64,000 bases of DNA, taken from positions 1 through 64,000 of the IMG/VR virus record IMGVR_UViG_3300049783_001054; one strand, 5' to 3'. Below, piece after piece: positions 9,799 to 35,548 of the stretch. Position 1 is the first letter of the stretch. Each line of letters opens with the position of its first letter. The DNA is from a virus. Below the pieces are notes generated by a model. That model was given only the letters and a program-made list of their open reading frames with translations, made no database searches and had not been told where the DNA came from. Both the position numbers and the translations under genes were made by a program.

Positions 9799-12700
9799 AT
9801 GGCTGAAGAATACAAACCCGTTTTCACTAGAGACATGGCTAGAAAACTTGCAGTAGCTGTAAGAGAAGATAATGATCTTGCTGATACAGAGTTTAGTGGG
9901 GATATTAGGTCTTTTTCTTATGGAGAGTTAAAACTTAAGTATGGTCAGGAAGTTGCGGATAATCGTAGATTCTATTCCCAAGAACGTAGGGAAACCAATA
10001 GAATTGATAATATTGATAGAGATTTAGGTGATAAGGTTACTGATACAGCTATCGCTATTCCTGCTGGCTTTGTTAATACTGTAGGTTCTATGGCTAGTGC
10101 TGCTCTTGGTGCTGCGGGTAAAGTAGATGAGATTTTACTTGGTTCTCGTGCAGTTTCTGATTATGCCGTTGATTACGCTAAAACCACAGATGGTATTGTT
10201 AAAGCTGCTAAATCTTTTCAATCTCAAGACCTCAAAGACATGCAAAGTGTTACTCAAACTGAAGCTGCATTGGATGCTCAAGATAACCTAGATCAGTATG
10301 ACAAAGATACTGAAGGTCGTGAGGGGAATTTTACTGATGCTCTTGCTTGGTTTGGAAGAGGCTCAATCAATAACCTTTCTCGCATAGGCTCAAACTCTGC
10401 TATTGCGGGAGATGTTATTGCTGAGGGTCTTGGTTCATTAGGGCCATCTGCAAAGCTTGCTGGTTACGCTTCTAAGCTTGTTACAGGTTCTGCTTCTTAT
10501 AAAGCGGCTGCAATTGCTAATGCTATTATACCAACTACAGGAAACAGAATTATTGCTGCTGGAGCTAAAGCAGTTAACAGAGGAGCTATTGCAGCCGCTG
10601 TTGGTGTTAGTGAGGCTTCTGGTGTTTACTCTCAAACTGTAAATGAAGTCCTTGGAATGTCTGATGAGGATCTTAGAAATACATCACCTGAGTATGTTCG
10701 TTTAATGGATGTAGATAAACTTACGTCTGAAGAAGCTAAATCAACTCTTGCTGCTGATGCTGGTTTAGAGGCATTTAAGACTGCATTTCCTATAGCTGCT
10801 GGTCTTGGTATTGTTGCAGGTAAATTTGAAGCTACACCATTTAAAGTATTCCAAAACTCAGGTCTCAAAGGTTTCCGTACAATAGGTACTCAAGCACTTG
10901 AAGAAGGTGGTCAAGGTTTAGCTGGTCAATATGCTACCAATACAGCAATCAGAGATACAGACATTGATGCTTCTCGTGGTTCAATGCTTGGTGGTCCTGA
11001 AGCTTTTGCTACTGGTATCGTTGCTGGTGCTGGTATGGCAGGCGTCATGGCTGCACCTTCGGTAGTTAGAGGCACACCTAAAACTATTAAAGATGTTGTC
11101 ACTTCTGAGACTGCTAAAAAGGTTGTCTCTTCTACGGCTTCTGGGGTTGCCTCTGGGCTTGATGCTGCTTCTGTCTTAGCTACTGCGGCTGCAAACACCA
11201 AAGCCGGTAAGGCAACTGTTTCTGGGGCTAAGGCAGCAGCTAATAAAGCTAGTGAAGTTGTAACTCCTGTTGTTGAAGCTACCGTTGAAAAGATCTCAGA
11301 GTTTAATGATCGTCCAGATCGTAAATCACAATCCGATATAATTACAACTCTTGCTTCAATTTCTCAACTTAGCTCTGATGAGTTATCAACCCGTAGTGAT
11401 GCAAATCAGATTGATGATGCTTTAGTAGGTTTCACTAAGACTCCATCTACTTCAACTGTCTCTGATGCCTTTAAAAATACTACTCCAGATAAAGCTACAA
11501 CTATTGATAAAATCGGAGCTATTGCAAGTAAGTTAGGTGAGAAGGGTGTTCGTATCAATAAGTTAAGTGATGCAGATATTCTTTATGCAGCAAATGAGAT
11601 TTCTCAACTTGAGAATTCAATTCCTAATCTTCCTTCTAATATTCAGAAGGAAGTTAAAAAGGTTATGGAATCTCAGGATTTTGTTAAAATCAGATTACGT
11701 GCAAGTCAGATTGATTTGAACCAAAGCCAAGATGCTAGTAAACCCATCACTGAGTCTGTGGTTCAGGAAACTAAAGCTGTTGCTAGTACTAACCCTGTTA
11801 ATGTAAATCCAGATGTTGTCACTAAGATCTTGTCACAGGATGATCGTACAGATCTTACTACCAGTGATATCAAAATCATGAAGACTGCTAAACGTATTTC
11901 ACAGGCAATTTTAAGCCGTGCTTCTGCATATGTTACTCTCAAGAAAGAACAGAATGTACAGCTTTCCGTTCTTCCTGAGTATAAAGATGGTAATAAGAAA
12001 CTTCCATTAATTGAAGCAGTCTCTAGGGATATTGCTATTGGTACAGGTAATACTAAATCACCCTCTGTTGCTGATTTTGCCAGTACTATTATTCAAGGTC
12101 TTCAATCTAAAGACCAAACCACTATTAATGCTGATGGTTTAATTGTGCCTTTAAAAGATACAACGGAACGCTTTACAAACTTTGCACGGCATATGATTAA
12201 CAAGGTTGCTGCCTTTAACATCTCCTATGACCAAAAGTCAGATAAGGGTGTAGGCACACCTCAAGTGTTTGAGAATCTTGGTTCCAATGGGAAGATGCGT
12301 CCGGGACGTCTTGAAGATAACTCTACAACTGTAAGCCCCGTCACATACCAATCACACACACCGGGAGGTATCAGTGTGGCTCGTGCAGTTCATGCTGATG
12401 CTGAAGCTACAGTTGAGGTTTACAATGCCTTAGCTGAAGCTTTCCCTGAGAGTTTTCCTGAAGGTAAGCTTAGTGTTAGTGGGTTAAGAGGATTTGAGAC
12501 TAAACTTAAAACTACACAAAATCTTATTGAATCAGATGTTGAAACAGAAACCACTACACAAACTGGGGGAAACCCCACCGGAGTTTCTGGAGAGACTGGG
12601 GTTCAAGTAACAGAACGTACTCCTGAAAATACCTACGATGGTATGCATTCTAAATTTGAAAAAGGGTTTCAACCAACCAATACAAAAGTTTCATACACAA

Positions 12701-20443: not shown

Positions 20444-20546
20444 TGGAAAGGGTTGGGCTTGAACCAACGACATACTGAAAAGTGTTAAAGGTTCTAGCTT
20501 TACCACGTATTACATCAGTCTGCTCTCCCAACTGAGCTACCTCTCC
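20444..20546 (-). tRNA. tRNA-like gene with a 36-nt insert in the anticodon loop (possible intron-containing tRNA-Tyr(GTA), or a pseudo-tRNA)
   Basis: Acceptor stem GGAGAGG/CCTTTCC plus discriminator A; D arm GCTC-AGTTGGGA-GAGC; T arm GTTGG-TTCAAGC-CCAAC; anticodon stem ACTGA/TCAGT enclosing 36 nt. Confidence 0.75.
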
Positions 20547-21808: not shown

Positions 21809-22612
21809 TCAGTCAGCAAACAAGTCAACTGGAGCAGAAGACTTTGCAGCACCATCAGGCTTAGAGAAGGACTTACCTTCAGCAGTTCCCTTACCAGTAG
21901 ACTTATCATAAGTCTTACCTTGATTCTGGCTCAACCACTTAGGGGCATAAAGGCTCTGGCTTTCATCCATCTTAGCGATGGCTTTCCTAACATCTCTAGC
22001 ATTGAGAACATCATGAAAGTTGCCACCAAGACTTTCAACAAACCTACTAACATCACTGATAGTGACAAGCTTTTCTTCGGGGAAAAACTTAACAATCTCG
22101 TTAATATCACGAGTATCACCAGTAGGTTGATACTTACCGTCGATGAGTTTAGTTTTATCAACTGTTTGGCGCTGAAGAGCAACTTGAATCATCTCACCAT
22201 GAAGCTCCGAGAAGCAATCAACGGCTTGAGGCATTTCCTTCTTAGCTTCAAAATCCCAAAGATTGAATGTAAGTTTTTCAACATCCATTTCACCAAGATC
22301 TTTACTGGCCACCAGCATAGTCAGTGAGCTAACCAGATTATATCCCGGAAGGTTTTTTTCCTCTCCAGTCTTTTTATCCTTATAGGTTAGACCTCCAGAA
22401 CGATTAGAAACCCAAATCTGTTGACGAACCTCACGGCCATTAATCTCAAGAATGAGATTAAAACTGTCAGCATCTGATTTTGCAGCTTTAGAAGTGTAAG
22501 CTGTCTTAATCTTAGCTGTGTAAATATCAGAGTCGATAGCTCCACCGCCACCAACATAATCATCCTCAACATCATTGGAGGCAGACTTTTTACTTGCAAA
22601 AATATTGCTCAT
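21809..22612 (-). CDS. Single-stranded DNA-binding protein (N4 gp45-like SSB, late transcription activator)
   Basis: DSDIYTAKIKTAY, LPGYNLVSSL, C-terminal ...LFAD; synteny. Confidence 0.85.
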   Translation of the reverse strand: MSNIFASKKSASNDVEDDYVGGGGAIDSDIYTAKIKTAYTSKAAKSDADSFNLILEINGREVRQQIWVSNRSGGLTYKDKKTGEEKNLPGYNLVSSLTMLVASKDLGEMDVEKLTFNLWDFEAKKEMPQAVDCFSELHGEMIQVALQRQTVDKTKLIDGKYQPTGDTRDINEIVKFFPEEKLVTISDVSRFVESLGGNFHDVLNARDVRKAIAKMDESQSLYAPKWLSQNQGKTYDKSTGKGTAEGKSFSKPDGAAKSSAPVDLFAD

Positions 22613-22643
22613 AGTTGTTTTCTTTCTTTAAAGTTTTAATTTG

Positions 22644-23378
22644 TTAGTCTGAATAATAGGCAACAAGTTCATCAATCACAAGTTGAGCATCATTATCAAT
22701 GAATGTCTGCTCATCTGTAAACAAACCAAAAGGAGACCTAATCCTATCACCTACAGTGGCTCTTGTGGTTCGAGTTTGGAATACATGTTTATATCCCATA
22801 TCTCGATCTTTTTCTGTAATAGTTAAAAGTTTGCCTTCTTTGGCATCTCTTTCAATCTCTTTAATAGTAGCTTTCTTGGCTCCAATTACAGTTGTAAAGA
22901 AAGCTTCAAGACCATTCTTTTTCAGTGCACCTTTAACAGGCACAGTATAAGAATACTTCCCAGAACTTTCATCTAAAACAGCATCAATGTGTCCAAGCAT
23001 AATAGTATAGCCTGTAAACTTTGCTACATAATCATAGATTAGCTTTGGGAAAAACTGACCATAATCACCCCATGCTGCCATAGTATTAGCAGAACCAATA
23101 ACATGTACAGACTCATACCGATTCATCATGAAACTGATGGTATCAACGATGATTGTATGGAATCGTCCGGGGTTAGCAATGACTTGATTATAAAGAGCAA
23201 AGATCTCTTCAGGGTCATCAATTGTAATTCGTTTGAATTTGTTCTTAAAAGGTAATGGTTTACCTCCTTCACAATTGATGTACAAAACTCCTTCTTGTCC
23301 TCTAATATTTCGGAGAGAAGAAGATTTGCCTGCACCAGAATCACCACAGATTAGTAATGCTTTTGGGTTTTCAGACAT
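22644..23378 (-). CDS. AAA/Sak4-like ATPase (N4 gp44-like)
   Basis: Start MSENPKALL after GGAGG; Walker A GDSGAGKS, Walker B IIVD; RIRSPFGLF. Confidence 0.85.
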   Translation of the reverse strand: MSENPKALLICGDSGAGKSSSLRNIRGQEGVLYINCEGGKPLPFKNKFKRITIDDPEEIFALYNQVIANPGRFHTIIVDTISFMMNRYESVHVIGSANTMAAWGDYGQFFPKLIYDYVAKFTGYTIMLGHIDAVLDESSGKYSYTVPVKGALKKNGLEAFFTTVIGAKKATIKEIERDAKEGKLLTITEKDRDMGYKHVFQTRTTRATVGDRIRSPFGLFTDEQTFIDNDAQLVIDELVAYYSD

Positions 23379-23529
23379 CAGGAACCTCCGAGAGTTGGAG
23401 ATTTTTATCTTCTTCTCCAACAAAACAAACAAACTCTTCATTCCTGTTAGAAGTCCATTGAGCTTTGTCTTGGTAAACAAGATACCAATAGAAGTCGAAA
23501 TAGATTAAATGTGTAGCTGAATCACCCAT
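23371..23529 (-). CDS. Small hypothetical protein (52 aa), not in the ORF track
   Basis: RBS AAAGGA then ATG; reads MGDSATHLIYFDFYWYLVYQ...EVPDV and overlaps the gp44 start. Confidence 0.5.
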   Translation of the reverse strand: MGDSATHLIYFDFYWYLVYQDKAQWTSNRNEEFVCFVGEEDKNLQLSEVPDV

Positions 23530-23549
23530 AGGTAAATTTCCTTTATAGC

Positions 23550-23720
23550 TTAATTGAGAGATCTAAAGAGGAATCTAACCGACACATCCTCTTGTATCCA
23601 AAGTTATGGACAGCGTGATAGTTATCTCTTATTTCCCGTACTTCTAGGTGGCCTTGTCACCAATCACGAAGCTGCCTTAGCTAAATTTCTCCTCTAAGGT
23701 ACATCTGGTCTCTCAATTAA
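23550..23720 (-). ncRNA. Candidate structured ncRNA (171 nt)
   Basis: Perfect 12-bp terminal inverted repeat TTAATTGAGAGA/TCTCTCAATTAA plus nested helices with G-U pairs that favour the - strand; intergenic. Confidence 0.55.
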
Positions 23721-23723
23721 AGG

Positions 23724-25922
23724 TTAAGTTGCCATCTTACTAGCAACTGATTTCAAGATAGTAGAATCAAGCTCATCCTTTTTAAGGGGATTTGAGGATT
23801 GACTGTTAAGTGTGTGAAGCTTACCTCGAATTACATCAAAGCTTGCTCCTGCATCTTTGAGCATCATTGCAAATTTCAACAAGTTATTGTTTCTATTTCC
23901 AACATCCATATTATTCAGGAACCATCTTTCAAGATGATCCAATCTACCAAGATCAGCAACAGAGTTAACATACTCACTGTGTTGTTTGGTTTTAGGAATA
24001 AATGGTAAAGCATTTACAAGAGAGGTTCCCTTGTGAATGTTGATCTTACTACCCTCTAAGGTCATCCATTTTTTAGATCTTTGGTTTGCAGACTCATCAG
24101 ATTTAAAGGGCAACCAAAGAAGAAAGCTATCCATAAATTCTTTATAATCAGCTTTATCTAATTTAATAATATAGTTAGATGGCATGATCAATCTAAATCT
24201 ATGCTCATCATCTGTATGTCTTTTAGTGGTAGCCGTAATGAATGTATATTCTTTCATCAATTCATGGATAGACTCAAGAGTAATACCATGTTTAATAATA
24301 TTACCGTCTTTATCTCTCTCATGACCGTCTAAATCAGCCACTAAACAGTTAAATCCTTGGATCACATTATCTTCAGATCTATGATCTTTTTCAAAAGAAT
24401 GGTTACACCAATGTAATCCAGATGCATTAAGCATTTTTGGTAAATTATCAATAGGCTGTTCAGTAGAAGTGTAGTTAGAAGCAAAATTATCAGAGTAGCT
24501 AAATTTTAGTTTATTTAAATCAGTCTCTTCAAGTTTTGAACCTGTAAAGAAATCAACACCACTGATTACTTCTTTCTTGATTACAACATGATTACCTACA
24601 CCCCAAGCCATAGCAAGATCCATAATTTCTCGACGTGGTGTTGAAGCTGATGGGTAATATGGGAGGTCTTCAACTAGATCAGCATGAGTTAATGTGACAC
24701 CAGTTTCTGCAATGTATTTAGCTAAACGTACAAAATTTCTTTCTCTTTGTAAGAGAGTCTGAAAACTGTTACCACTTTCTTCTGCTACTTTAATGGCTTG
24801 TCTTAGATTGTTTTTTGTAATTTCAGCAGAATCATCTAAGAAAGCATACACACCTGCTAATTTTAAAGACTTAAAATATCTATGAGATAATTCTGCTTTA
24901 CGAATAATCTCATGTTCTGGCAATGCATTAGCTACAGATTCACAGTGTAAACGGTAAGAGATTAACTCAACACCTACTTCTTTAGGTACATCAATTTTTT
25001 TATCATAAAATCTAGTATCAGCATACTTAGCAAGTTTATTTTTCCAAGAAATTAGTGCATGAGAACGATTTTTGTTAACAAGACTGTCATACACATCTTC
25101 TGGGTTTACATTGGAACTAGTAGATTCAGGTTTACCCATTCCAAAGAAGCACCGTCTAGCCATACCAGCTTCAAGGATACCATAGAATTCTTCTTCAGTT
25201 TTGGAACCATCAAATAATTTTGAGGTGGTTCCAAACATGAGCATATTAGCTGGAGATGCTCCAACCAAATCAACCCCACGCTCATTCTCTGCGGTGTTTT
25301 TAATGAGTTTGGTTTTGATTCTTCCAAGATCATAAAGCTCTAAGAAGATGTTAAGAATTTCCATGTTACCTTGAATGTTAGACCCAATCTCATCCATTTG
25401 AAAATTGATTGAGCCTACTCTCGCAAGTTGTAGTTTGTATCTCAACTGTTTTACGGCTGGACCTGTACCAGAGTCAAATGTGAAATGGGCATGGCCTTGG
25501 CGTTTGAAGTCAGCAATTAATGCTGCTTTCTCTTCGTCTTCATCTCCAGATTTAGCAGCAGCAATGTTCACTGCTAGATCATAAATAGAATTTTCTGCAA
25601 TTGCAGGAAACACAGTACCAGTGAAATTAACTCTGAAATCAGAAATAATATCTTCCATTAAAGACACAGAATGTCCTTTGCCAAAACCAGAAGTAGCCAA
25701 TGCAATAGAGTAGATATTGATTGGGATAATTCCACGTTCTGGACTAACAATCGTAGCTCTCATTGAACTAGGGATTAGACCTAGAAAGTAAGCAACTTCA
25801 GCTTGGAAGAACTCACGGTTGACGTTTCCTGTACGGTGACAGAGTAGATCAACCATATCCGACATCGAAGAATGATGAGTTTGTTTCTCAATCACACTGA
25901 GGTCATAGAATGGCTTTGTCAT
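23724..25922 (-). CDS. DNA primase/helicase-like protein (N4 gp43-like)
   Basis: Walker-like ATSGFGKG, FQMDEIG; primase-like ADLD, TTKRH, RFRLI; C-terminal PriCT-like GNRNNNLLKFA. Confidence 0.85.
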   Translation of the reverse strand: MTKPFYDLSVIEKQTHHSSMSDMVDLLCHRTGNVNREFFQAEVAYFLGLIPSSMRATIVSPERGIIPINIYSIALATSGFGKGHSVSLMEDIISDFRVNFTGTVFPAIAENSIYDLAVNIAAAKSGDEDEEKAALIADFKRQGHAHFTFDSGTGPAVKQLRYKLQLARVGSINFQMDEIGSNIQGNMEILNIFLELYDLGRIKTKLIKNTAENERGVDLVGASPANMLMFGTTSKLFDGSKTEEEFYGILEAGMARRCFFGMGKPESTSSNVNPEDVYDSLVNKNRSHALISWKNKLAKYADTRFYDKKIDVPKEVGVELISYRLHCESVANALPEHEIIRKAELSHRYFKSLKLAGVYAFLDDSAEITKNNLRQAIKVAEESGNSFQTLLQRERNFVRLAKYIAETGVTLTHADLVEDLPYYPSASTPRREIMDLAMAWGVGNHVVIKKEVISGVDFFTGSKLEETDLNKLKFSYSDNFASNYTSTEQPIDNLPKMLNASGLHWCNHSFEKDHRSEDNVIQGFNCLVADLDGHERDKDGNIIKHGITLESIHELMKEYTFITATTKRHTDDEHRFRLIMPSNYIIKLDKADYKEFMDSFLLWLPFKSDESANQRSKKWMTLEGSKINIHKGTSLVNALPFIPKTKQHSEYVNSVADLGRLDHLERWFLNNMDVGNRNNNLLKFAMMLKDAGASFDVIRGKLHTLNSQSSNPLKKDELDSTILKSVASKMAT

Positions 25923-25934
25923 TTAAATTTCCTT

Positions 25935-26936
25935 TTAGACTCGACTTCCGTCATCATTAAAATAGTTTTTTCGTTGATCGCAAACCGAAAAAGCGGCGCA
26001 ATAAGTACATGCTTTGACCTCACCGGGAACTTTTACAACAACTCCTTTTCCTTTTTGTTTAAGGTGAAGTTGTGCATCAGCTTCATTGGTTTCAAAGTTC
26101 TTTTGGCACCTACCACCTGCGGCAGCAGTTGCTGGATTTGAGTAATACTTAAAAGCATCTTCGGATCTCCAAAGCTCTTTATTAGTACATTGAACCATTT
26201 TATCTTGGGTAAGTTTGGCATTGGATAAAATATGATCAACCTTACCATTTACCCAATCTTCTGTCTCAGAAAGAGATAGCAAAGCAAACTCTTTGTGTGG
26301 AGTTCTGATCTGAGGGTATCTTGGGTCAGCAGTCCTGTATTTAACCCAATCTGTAAAGATAAATTGGATTTTCATCATATCATCCCTGATTAGATCAGGC
26401 ATAATCCAACGATACATAGATCCCTGTAAAACATAATCTTCATCTTTGTTTCCCGAAGTCCAAGAAAAAGTAGATGTAGATTTAAAGTCTCGGTAAGATT
26501 GGCCAATTAGAAAATCAAGCTGACCAGTAACTACTAAATCTCTAAATTGTTTAAAGCCTCTAATCTCAAGATAGATTGGAATTTCATCATCTTTGAGAGT
26601 TTTAGGATCAGGATTAATTCTAATCTTTTTGATGATTCTTTCAGGGTAATGAAGCTTCCTCATAGAAGCTTTCCAATTTCCTTGGGTCCAAGCACGCTCA
26701 ATAGAGTCGTGTAGCCCATGTCCCATTCGAGACGCAATCATATCAGAAAGATCATACTCCTCCTGAGTCTGGTCTACCTGACGTTTGAGGATAAGCTGAC
26801 GAGTTGGCTTCATAAGTGTGGTTACAGAGATAAGCTCACCCGGAGGTGCATCACTAGCTCCTGATTTGTAACCATCCTGAAGTAGCCAAACAGCTAAAGG
26901 TAAGTCAATATTATGGTTGTTTGTAATTTTTACCAT
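25935..26936 (-). CDS. PD-(D/E)XK exonuclease, Cas4/AddB-like (N4 gp42-like)
   Basis: ISVTTLMKPTRQ, TGQLD...DFKST, C-terminal CTYCAAFSVC. Confidence 0.8.
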   Translation of the reverse strand: MVKITNNHNIDLPLAVWLLQDGYKSGASDAPPGELISVTTLMKPTRQLILKRQVDQTQEEYDLSDMIASRMGHGLHDSIERAWTQGNWKASMRKLHYPERIIKKIRINPDPKTLKDDEIPIYLEIRGFKQFRDLVVTGQLDFLIGQSYRDFKSTSTFSWTSGNKDEDYVLQGSMYRWIMPDLIRDDMMKIQFIFTDWVKYRTADPRYPQIRTPHKEFALLSLSETEDWVNGKVDHILSNAKLTQDKMVQCTNKELWRSEDAFKYYSNPATAAAGGRCQKNFETNEADAQLHLKQKGKGVVVKVPGEVKACTYCAAFSVCDQRKNYFNDDGSRV

Positions 26937-35118: not shown

Positions 35119-35158
35119 TAAAAAAGAAAAGCCTCTACCTAACATAGGCAGAGGCTTT
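35119..35158 (-). terminator. Intrinsic terminator
   Basis: AAAGCCTCTGCCTATG/TAGGTAGAGGCTTT hairpin followed by TCTTTTTT. Confidence 0.75.
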
Positions 35159-35161
35159 AAT

Positions 35162-35548
35162 TTAAAATGTTCCCCAGAATTTAGCAGTATCTGGGAGGTA
35201 AGGTTTCCAAGCAGTATCAAAAAATAGATTGCAATCCTGTTTTACATAAGGGTAAAACAATTCAGCAATATCTTTATCTTTGAAACCAGAAAGACCAGTA
35301 CCCACTCTAGTTACTTGATATTGTTTACTGCCATTACTGATCTGGGCATAATTAACAAATCGTTTAATATGTTTAGAAATACGATACAGAGACATTGAAG
35401 TAATGTTTAAACCTTTTGTAGGTAGTGCATAACAATCACCTGTCATACCTTCTCCTACTCCCATGACTGCACCTTTATTTTTGTGAGCATAACGTGCTGC
35501 ACCAGCACCATGAAAGCCACTTAGATTTGACCCAAATACAAAAATCAT
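35162..35548 (-). CDS. A1S_2505-family phage protein (macro-like fold, inferred)
   Basis: IFVFGSNLSGFHGAGAA...YALPTK...VTRVGTGLSG signature. Confidence 0.7.
   Translation of the reverse strand: MIFVFGSNLSGFHGAGAARYAHKNKGAVMGVGEGMTGDCYALPTKGLNITSMSLYRISKHIKRFVNYAQISNGSKQYQVTRVGTGLSGFKDKDIAELFYPYVKQDCNLFFDTAWKPYLPDTAKFWGTF

Follow-up and report, generated by a model that had tools for sequence, protein, structure and literature searches.

The element described here lies on the minus strand of the analysed window, a 64,000-nucleotide stretch of viral DNA whose record is a complete virus genome of 76,286 bp. The genome contains a 3,479-aa open reading frame (ORF) typical of an N4-type virion RNA polymerase, and its primase region exhibits DNA identities of 68–79% to N4-like roseobacter phages. 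The surrounding operon is tightly packed and encoded on one strand, with the minus-strand order of an exonuclease-like gene, primase, a 194-nt gap, a 52-aa ORF, and Sak4-like, SSB and RusA-like genes. The primase gene (25922..23724) ends at a stop codon at 23724, and the next start codon, that of the 52-aa ORF (23371..23529), is located at 23529. As had been read from the sequence, the element almost fills the space between these two codons, occupying 171 of the 194 intergenic bases. Its terminal stem, P1, begins 3 nt past the stop codon of primase, and ~9 nt separate P1 from the ribosome-binding site of the 52-aa ORF. No terminator follows on the 3′ side of the element.

The 52-aa ORF opens with MGDSATHLIYFDFYWYLV and lies 3′ of the element, outside the RNA. 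It displays 43% identity (E 7e-17) to a 50-aa ORF at the same position in a related locus (L006:2843-2992) and matched no family in PHROG. This small ORF is judged to be real. A decayed tRNA-Arg, once considered 3′ of the element, was dropped, as that stretch is the conserved 52-aa ORF.

The whole match to the covariance model R1, which comprises the element and four flanking bases per side, spans 23546..23724 on the minus strand (176.7 bits, E ~1e-47) and is the only strong R1 copy in the 76-kb genome. A second candidate copy on the plus strand at 35139-35285 scored 15.6 bits inside coding sequence and was taken as a chance match. It contains a P2-like TGTTCCCCAGAATTTAGC...TCTGGG pairing, overlaps minus-strand ORFs and comes after a bidirectional terminator-like hairpin at ~35130-35160.

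An earlier sequence-only reading of the locus had proposed a rod-like RNA closed by a perfect 12-nt inverted repeat. The repeat, TTAATTGAGAGA/TCTCTCAATTAA, is present at exactly 23550-23561 and 23709-23720, and its two arms enclose the 171-nt element lying between the stop codon of primase and the start of the following ORF. The single-sequence fold has an energy of -45.6 kcal/mol (z = -2.23), which was equalled by 3 of 200 dinucleotide shuffles, a modest margin that is suggestive rather than decisive. Its centroid consists of the terminal stem and three separate hairpins, not a rod. On nine homologues, the fold is a five-way junction in which P1 closes four hairpins (P2–P5).

The P1 helix is formed by the 5′ strand TTAATTGAGAGA (23709..23720, minus strand) and the 3′ strand TCTCTCAATTAA (23550..23561, minus strand). 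Compensatory changes occur at all 12 P1 pairs among the nine lineages, 97–98% of the cells are paired, and the helix measures 10–13 bp across the family. P1 is followed by the J1/2 segment (23700..23708, minus strand), in which the alignments reveal the conserved motif CCAGAUGU. The CCAGATG sequence of J1/2 is kept in six of the nine lineages; it is replaced by CCAGAATG in L281 and diverges in L014 and L127. The P2 hairpin (23675..23699, minus strand) pairs CCTTAG with CTAAGG over 6 bp (96% paired, double changes at 4 of 6 bp) and presents a 13-nt loop, AGGAGAAATTTAG.

The P3 hairpin (23647..23661, minus strand) is built from GGTG and CACC, which are 100% paired, and carries the near-invariant 7-nt loop ACAAGGC. 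All four P3 pairs covary, and the helix is 4–6 bp long across copies. The loop reads AYAAGGC in eight of the nine copies of the window's own type, type A, with ACAAGAC in L127. Between P3 and P4, the purine-rich single strand J3/4 (23613..23646, minus strand) retains the conserved AAUAAGAG and AUCACGCUG sequences without supported pairing. The P4 hairpin (TGTCC/GGATA; 23595..23612, minus strand) is the weakest helix, with 84% pairing and double changes at three of its 5 bp.

The P5 hairpin (23570..23589, minus strand) reads GGA-TGT-GTCG-GTT-AGAT-TCC in the window and contains the T-loop-like sequence GGTTnGATYCC. In the family, it takes the form GGR-UGU-GUCG-GUU-CGAU-YCC with a 14-nt top, UGUGUCGGUUCGAU, and its final 11 nt (GGUUCGAUYCC) coincide with the tRNA T-loop consensus. 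The outer GGR/YCC pairs covary, the R-Y pair being A-U in three and G-C in six of the nine type-A copies, and the outer helix of L275 additionally contains CGG/CCG. The outer pairs of a T-stem are not maintained. Because GGR/YCC covaries and the outer T-stem pairs are lost, a bulged hairpin, with T-loop identity confined to the sequence of its top, is the preferred drawing of P5, which may nevertheless switch between the bulged hairpin and T-arm folds. Family-wide, the P3 loop AYAAGGC and the P5 top UGUGUCGGUUCGAU form two near-invariant apical motifs. The window copy keeps all helices and deviates from the family only in the P5 top, where, alone among the copies, it has A in place of the invariant C, and the G that comes next is missing.

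The five-helix fold was evaluated by covariation. In a model-fitted alignment of the nine available type-A lineages (A6), 95.7% of the cells at the 35 pairs of P1–P5 are paired, compared with 34–49% in slid-partner controls. Compensatory double changes occur at 25 of the 35 pairs in the same alignment. The covariation score is 0.714, which none of 500 shuffles reached, and decreases to 0.07–0.16 when partners are slid by one to three columns. A structure-blind MAFFT alignment analysed with RNAalifold recovered P1, P2, part of P3 and P5, with compensatory changes at 20 of 27 pairs. By these comparisons, P1 (12–13 bp), P2 (6 bp) and P3 (4–6 bp) are very well supported, and P4 is weaker.

The same pairing counts bear on the helices that had been nested into the rod. 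The terminal stem (98% paired) and GGTG/CACC (100%) survive, and all other proposed helices fail. Across the nine homologues, pairing is limited to 53% for AGAGG/CCTCT, 68% for GGCAG/CTGTC and 51% for CGTGAT/ATCACG, and AATTTAGCT/GGTTAGATT is 69% paired with zero double changes. The proposed side hairpin GATACA/TGTGTC clashes with two covariation-supported helices. These counts therefore reject the rod-like, 6S-type fold.

The strand on which the RNA folds is indicated by its wobble pairs. In the conserved helices, 25 G-U cells are observed versus 3 A-C cells, and the folding strand is therefore the minus strand of the window, in agreement with the G-U argument made originally. These pairs also bear on whether the element might instead be a single-stranded DNA structure used in replication or an N4-type hairpin promoter. 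N4-like phages use DNA hairpin promoters, and the element adjoins the primase, Sak4 and SSB genes; however, the many strand-biased G-U pairs would correspond in DNA to G-T pairs, which are weaker, the element is also found away from replication genes and beside tRNA genes, and most related N4-like phages lack it. We regard a DNA structure as highly improbable.

Selection on the RNA was assessed against its neighbours. The element is 85% and 83% identical to its counterparts in the related loci L010 and L005, respectively, compared with 71–75% for the flanking coding DNA (the 3′-terminal 600 nt of primase and the 5′-terminal 600 nt of the Sak4-like gene) and 40–49% for third codon positions of the flanking genes. 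By this comparison, constraint on the RNA is similar to that on first and second codon positions. The window copy is under purifying selection despite its diverged T-loop-like motif. No open reading frame is common to all nine copies. Covariation, strand bias and conservation above that of the flanking genes bear out the view of an unannotated structured RNA selected on the minus strand, and we take the element to be a real, conserved five-helix RNA.

To define its distribution, 35 loci encoding relatives of the Sak4-like protein were examined, in which the primase-Sak4 gap ranges from 17 to 734 nt. In these loci, nhmmer and R1 identified the element only in L010, L005 (with an identical copy in L012) and L014. 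Pattern scans added L281, L275, L151 (also L154 and L155), L122 and L127. L281 is an N4-like phage with the element in the primase-Sak4 gap, its contig having been assigned to a Flavobacteriaceae MAG, and the other four are other phage contigs. Altogether, eight lineages besides the window carry the element, all on uncultivated phage contigs, with R1 scores of 52–195 bits and element lengths of about 160–245 nt. Since only ~5 of roughly 25 related N4-like lineages have it, the element is dispensable. A scan of viral contigs with the pattern CCAGATG...GAYAAGGC gave only chance matches by R1 and nhmmer checks, and a metagenome pattern scan yielded zero new lineages. A blastn search of 50,697 GenBank phage records (cultured phages) with two family members retrieved zero family members, and a search of GenBank phages with the P5 region gave near matches only, the one examined being a T5-like tRNA-Ser gene.

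More distant relatives were classified as type B (L096/L115, L090, L101, L058 and L278) and type C (L142/L279, L052 and L277). They score 20–29 bits with R1 and have the GACAAGGCC hairpin and the invariant P5 top in common with type A, but differ in the 5′ half and in size (about 145–230 nt). The AYAAGGC loop recurs in both types, with L278 as the sole type-B variant. Their P5 outer helix is extended to 5–8 bp and displays further compensation (e.g. CCGGA/UCCGG versus CUGGA/UCCAG). The type-C element of L277 is located within an array of more than 15 tRNA genes.

Two further repeat-containing regions were noted in these searches. In L151 (6776-6914; also L154 and L155), a candidate tandem junction RNA composed of GGGGACGCAAGATC units with a period of 125 lies 130–270 nt from the type-A element in the same ~450-nt noncoding region, which is rich in RNA elements. 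In L339 (~10400-11000), a CRISPR-like array contains at least nine repeats with a period of ~65 nt and the repeat end ATATGTGTCGGTTCGAT; the 14-mer common to its repeat and the P5 top reflects only the search pattern, which selected for this 14-mer.

The primase-Sak4 gap is a mosaic of independent modules. It contains the element and the small ORF in the window, the element and a tRNA-Arg(CCU) gene separated by a 3-nt spacer in L010 and L005, a tRNA-Arg gene and a small ORF in L002, L004 and L006-L008, and the element alone in L281, where the Sak4 ribosome-binding site directly follows P1. In many relatives, the gap is empty of these modules. A tRNA gene begins 3–4 nt past the 3′ strand of P1 in L010, L005 and L122, the last of which has the element directly 5′ of tRNA-Met. 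Elsewhere, the element is found near tail-fibre genes (L151) or near the portal gene (L127). Because it sits 5′ of tRNA genes or in unrelated gene contexts in relatives, the element can be regarded as an RNA gene in its own right, a module comparable to the tRNA genes that it often adjoins.

This context pattern fits a trans-acting RNA gene better than one that controls a single, fixed neighbour. Alternatively, the element might act in cis within the replication operon, where it could be a site of processing, stabilise the 3′ end of the primase message or regulate translation of the next gene. Such a role would suit the tightly packed same-strand operon, the close spacing of P1 to the primase stop codon and the following ribosome-binding site, and the arrangement in L281. 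However, the downstream partner varies among the small ORF, a tRNA gene and Sak4, and the same RNA occurs near tail and portal genes and before tRNA-Met. Moreover, a simple stabiliser or 12-bp RNase III site needs no invariant apical loops, and the element lacks a 3′ terminator. We therefore consider a cis-acting role unlikely. The RNase III-processed leader and the replication structure offered in the sequence-only reading both fit poorly with the occurrence of the same RNA beside tRNA, tail and portal genes in unrelated phages.

The element was compared with known RNA families. Rfam 15 gave zero families at the element either over window positions 22000-26000 (E up to 10) or over the homologous loci (gathering score and E up to 1), and a weak 'DUF2815 RNA' match (E 7.4) was dismissed as noise. 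The similar size and terminal stem would be compatible with a distant member of an established family (6S RNA, retron msr-msd, YrlA, tmRNA or phi29-type pRNA), but the empty Rfam searches, the missing marker genes and the rejection of the rod fold argue against such an origin, as does a module order unlike that of YrlA (PMC4201824), and it is scarcely credible. The resemblance to 6S RNA suggested earlier extends to the similar length and terminal closing helix; the 6S model RF00013 has no match at the element, and a five-way junction differs from a rod with a large central bubble. The suggested likeness to retron msr-msd does not hold since the genome lacks a reverse transcriptase gene (zero PF00078 matches), and the neighbours encode primase and the Sak4-like protein. 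A search of the complete 76-kb genome for TROVE/Ro60 (PF05731) gave zero matches, with control genomes matched, and the YrlA model RF02553 had zero matches at the element. Whereas tmRNA combines a tRNA-like domain with a tag reading frame and pseudoknots, the element has no tag reading frame; the tmRNA-clan models of Rfam found nothing at the element, and the segment after P3 varies in length by numbers not divisible by three. The family is previously uncatalogued in this comparison, outside of which lie the 8,495 unnamed candidates of a 2023 catalogue of phage structured RNAs (PMC10690425).

In sequence, the P5 top resembles a tRNA T-arm. A 20-mer of P5 is rare in bacteria, with 52 places among 185,579 species, mostly in tRNA-Leu and tRNA-Gly genes; the genuine tRNA genes containing it include tRNA-Leu(CAA/UAA) and, in planctomycetes, tRNA-Gly. 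One could envisage a tRNA, aberrant or carrying an insert, that still decodes, with P3 as the anticodon arm and P5 as the T-arm. Consistent with this reading, GGUUCGAUYCC equals the T-loop consensus, the P3 loop is 7 nt long and could be read as A-Y-AAG-G-C with a Leu AAG anticodon, and the element adjoins tRNA genes. Nevertheless, ARAGORN called neither a tRNA nor a tmRNA at the element with or without introns, and Rfam tRNA (RF00005) and tmRNA searches were negative in 22000-26000 at E up to 10. The tRNA arrangement of a 5-bp T-stem stacked on a 7-bp acceptor is absent, as P1 measures 10–13 bp and a 6–8-nt linker separates it from P5. The covarying GGR/YCC helix competes with the T-stem, with which its pairing is incompatible. 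CCA is not encoded, and loop position 33 is C in many members. P5 is also no copy of the phage's own tRNA-Leu, whose T-arm differs. A decoding tRNA is thus quite improbable.

Other tRNA-related genes were observed in the same genome and in prophages. Outside the window, ~10 tRNA genes (Met x2, Tyr, Ser, Gln, Pro, Arg-UCU, Leu-UAA and Thr) form a cluster at 65.7–68.5 kb that uses both strands and is far from the element. Within the window, a tRNA-like gene at 20444-20546 (minus strand) scores 44.8 bits on the Rfam tRNA model and has good acceptor, D and T arms, with an extra 26–29 nt in the anticodon loop. Standard ARAGORN does not call this gene; when introns are allowed, it is called as tRNA-Stop(tta) interrupted by a 26-nt intron. 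The gene may encode a phage tRNA that is suppressor-like or bears an insert. A separate, abundant tRNA-like RNA of ~100–130 nt is found in isolate prophages (L140, L135, L139, L065, L050 and ~90 more loci), in many cases adjacent to tRNA genes. Its acceptor stem comprises 7 bp (AGGAACA/TGTTCCT), its D-arm covaries and bears the loop GATTGGAAA, and its T-arm (GTCGG TTCGATT CCGAC) is perfect, but a highly variable middle domain replaces the anticodon arm. ARAGORN does not call it, and one copy scores 31 bits on the Rfam tRNA model.

We can only infer what the element does. The explanation that we favour, with moderate confidence, is that it represents an uncatalogued family of phage structured small RNAs that is excised in the manner of tRNAs and acts in trans as a partial tRNA mimic. 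The element would be transcribed on the gene-sense strand together with its neighbours, and the RNA would be released by tRNA-processing and general RNases. Where a tRNA starts 3–4 nt on the 3′ side, the RNase P cut at the tRNA 5′ end would set the 3′ end of the RNA. P1 would protect both RNA ends, and the stable RNA would present its invariant loops to a conserved host or phage factor. The partner would most plausibly read the tRNA T-loop or elbow, so that the RNA may serve as a partial tRNA mimic, a decoy or a recruiter. Covariation for the extended, bulged P5 over a true T-arm weakens the tRNA-mimic idea, and the loss of the invariant C of the T-loop-like motif in the window copy also counts against the favoured explanation.

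A more specific proposal, which we hold tentatively and consider possible rather than probable, is that the phage-made partial mimic uses its T-loop-like hairpin and anticodon-loop-like AYAAGGC loop to capture a tRNA-reading host factor. Candidates would be a defence nuclease directed at tRNAs, a chaperone or an enzyme that modifies the T-loop, and a processing enzyme. If true, such capture would protect or reprogram translation during infection and would suggest a function for long-unexplained RNAs of tRNA clusters, e.g. T4 RNAC and RNAD.

Apart from the mechanism, the catalogue of phage RNAs gains a motif supported by covariation. The family is spread over unrelated uncultivated phages, and its two invariant loops are predicted to mark a specific binding surface. 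It thereby provides a concrete RNA for probing tRNA mimicry, counter-defence and the hijacking of tRNA enzymes. For annotation, the interval between primase and Sak4 in N4-like phages stands out as a hotspot of RNA genes and small ORFs.

The bacterial Y RNA YrlA (RF02553), some copies of which are phage-encoded, likewise joins a tRNA-like module to a long terminal stem, in which the 5′ end pairs with the 3′ end (PMC4201824). YrlA genes lie within 4 kb of a Ro60/TROVE gene and carry GNCGAA near the 5′ end, and their modules follow the order V-T-AS-D (PMC4201824). In the present element, by contrast, no module intervenes between the T-loop-like hairpin and the 3′ strand, and a TROVE gene is absent from the genome.

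That phage tRNA clusters specify additional stable RNAs, T4 RNAC and RNAD among them, has been recognised for 50 years, and these two RNAs are the closest analogues of the element. RNAC (species 1, 139 nt) and RNAD (species 2, 119 nt) are phage-encoded and adjoin tRNA-Arg in the tRNA cluster. Their roles are still unknown (PMC3014915, PMC9697503). The 3′ part of RNAC contains a T-arm-like GGGTTCGAATCCC hairpin followed by a strand able to pair with the RNAC 5′ end. The element displays neither sequence nor profile similarity to these RNAs, and R1 with filters off gave at most 2.4 bits over rnaC in a comparison with T4 rnaC and rnaD. The T-arm of RNAC directly adjoins the terminal stem, as it would in a tRNA, whereas the element has a 6–8-nt linker, a 10–13-bp P1 and a P5 that covaries as a different hairpin. 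The adjacency to tRNA genes that characterises RNAC and RNAD recurs in the L010, L005 and L122 copies of the element. The element defines a separate, well-supported family of the general T4 RNAC/RNAD kind.
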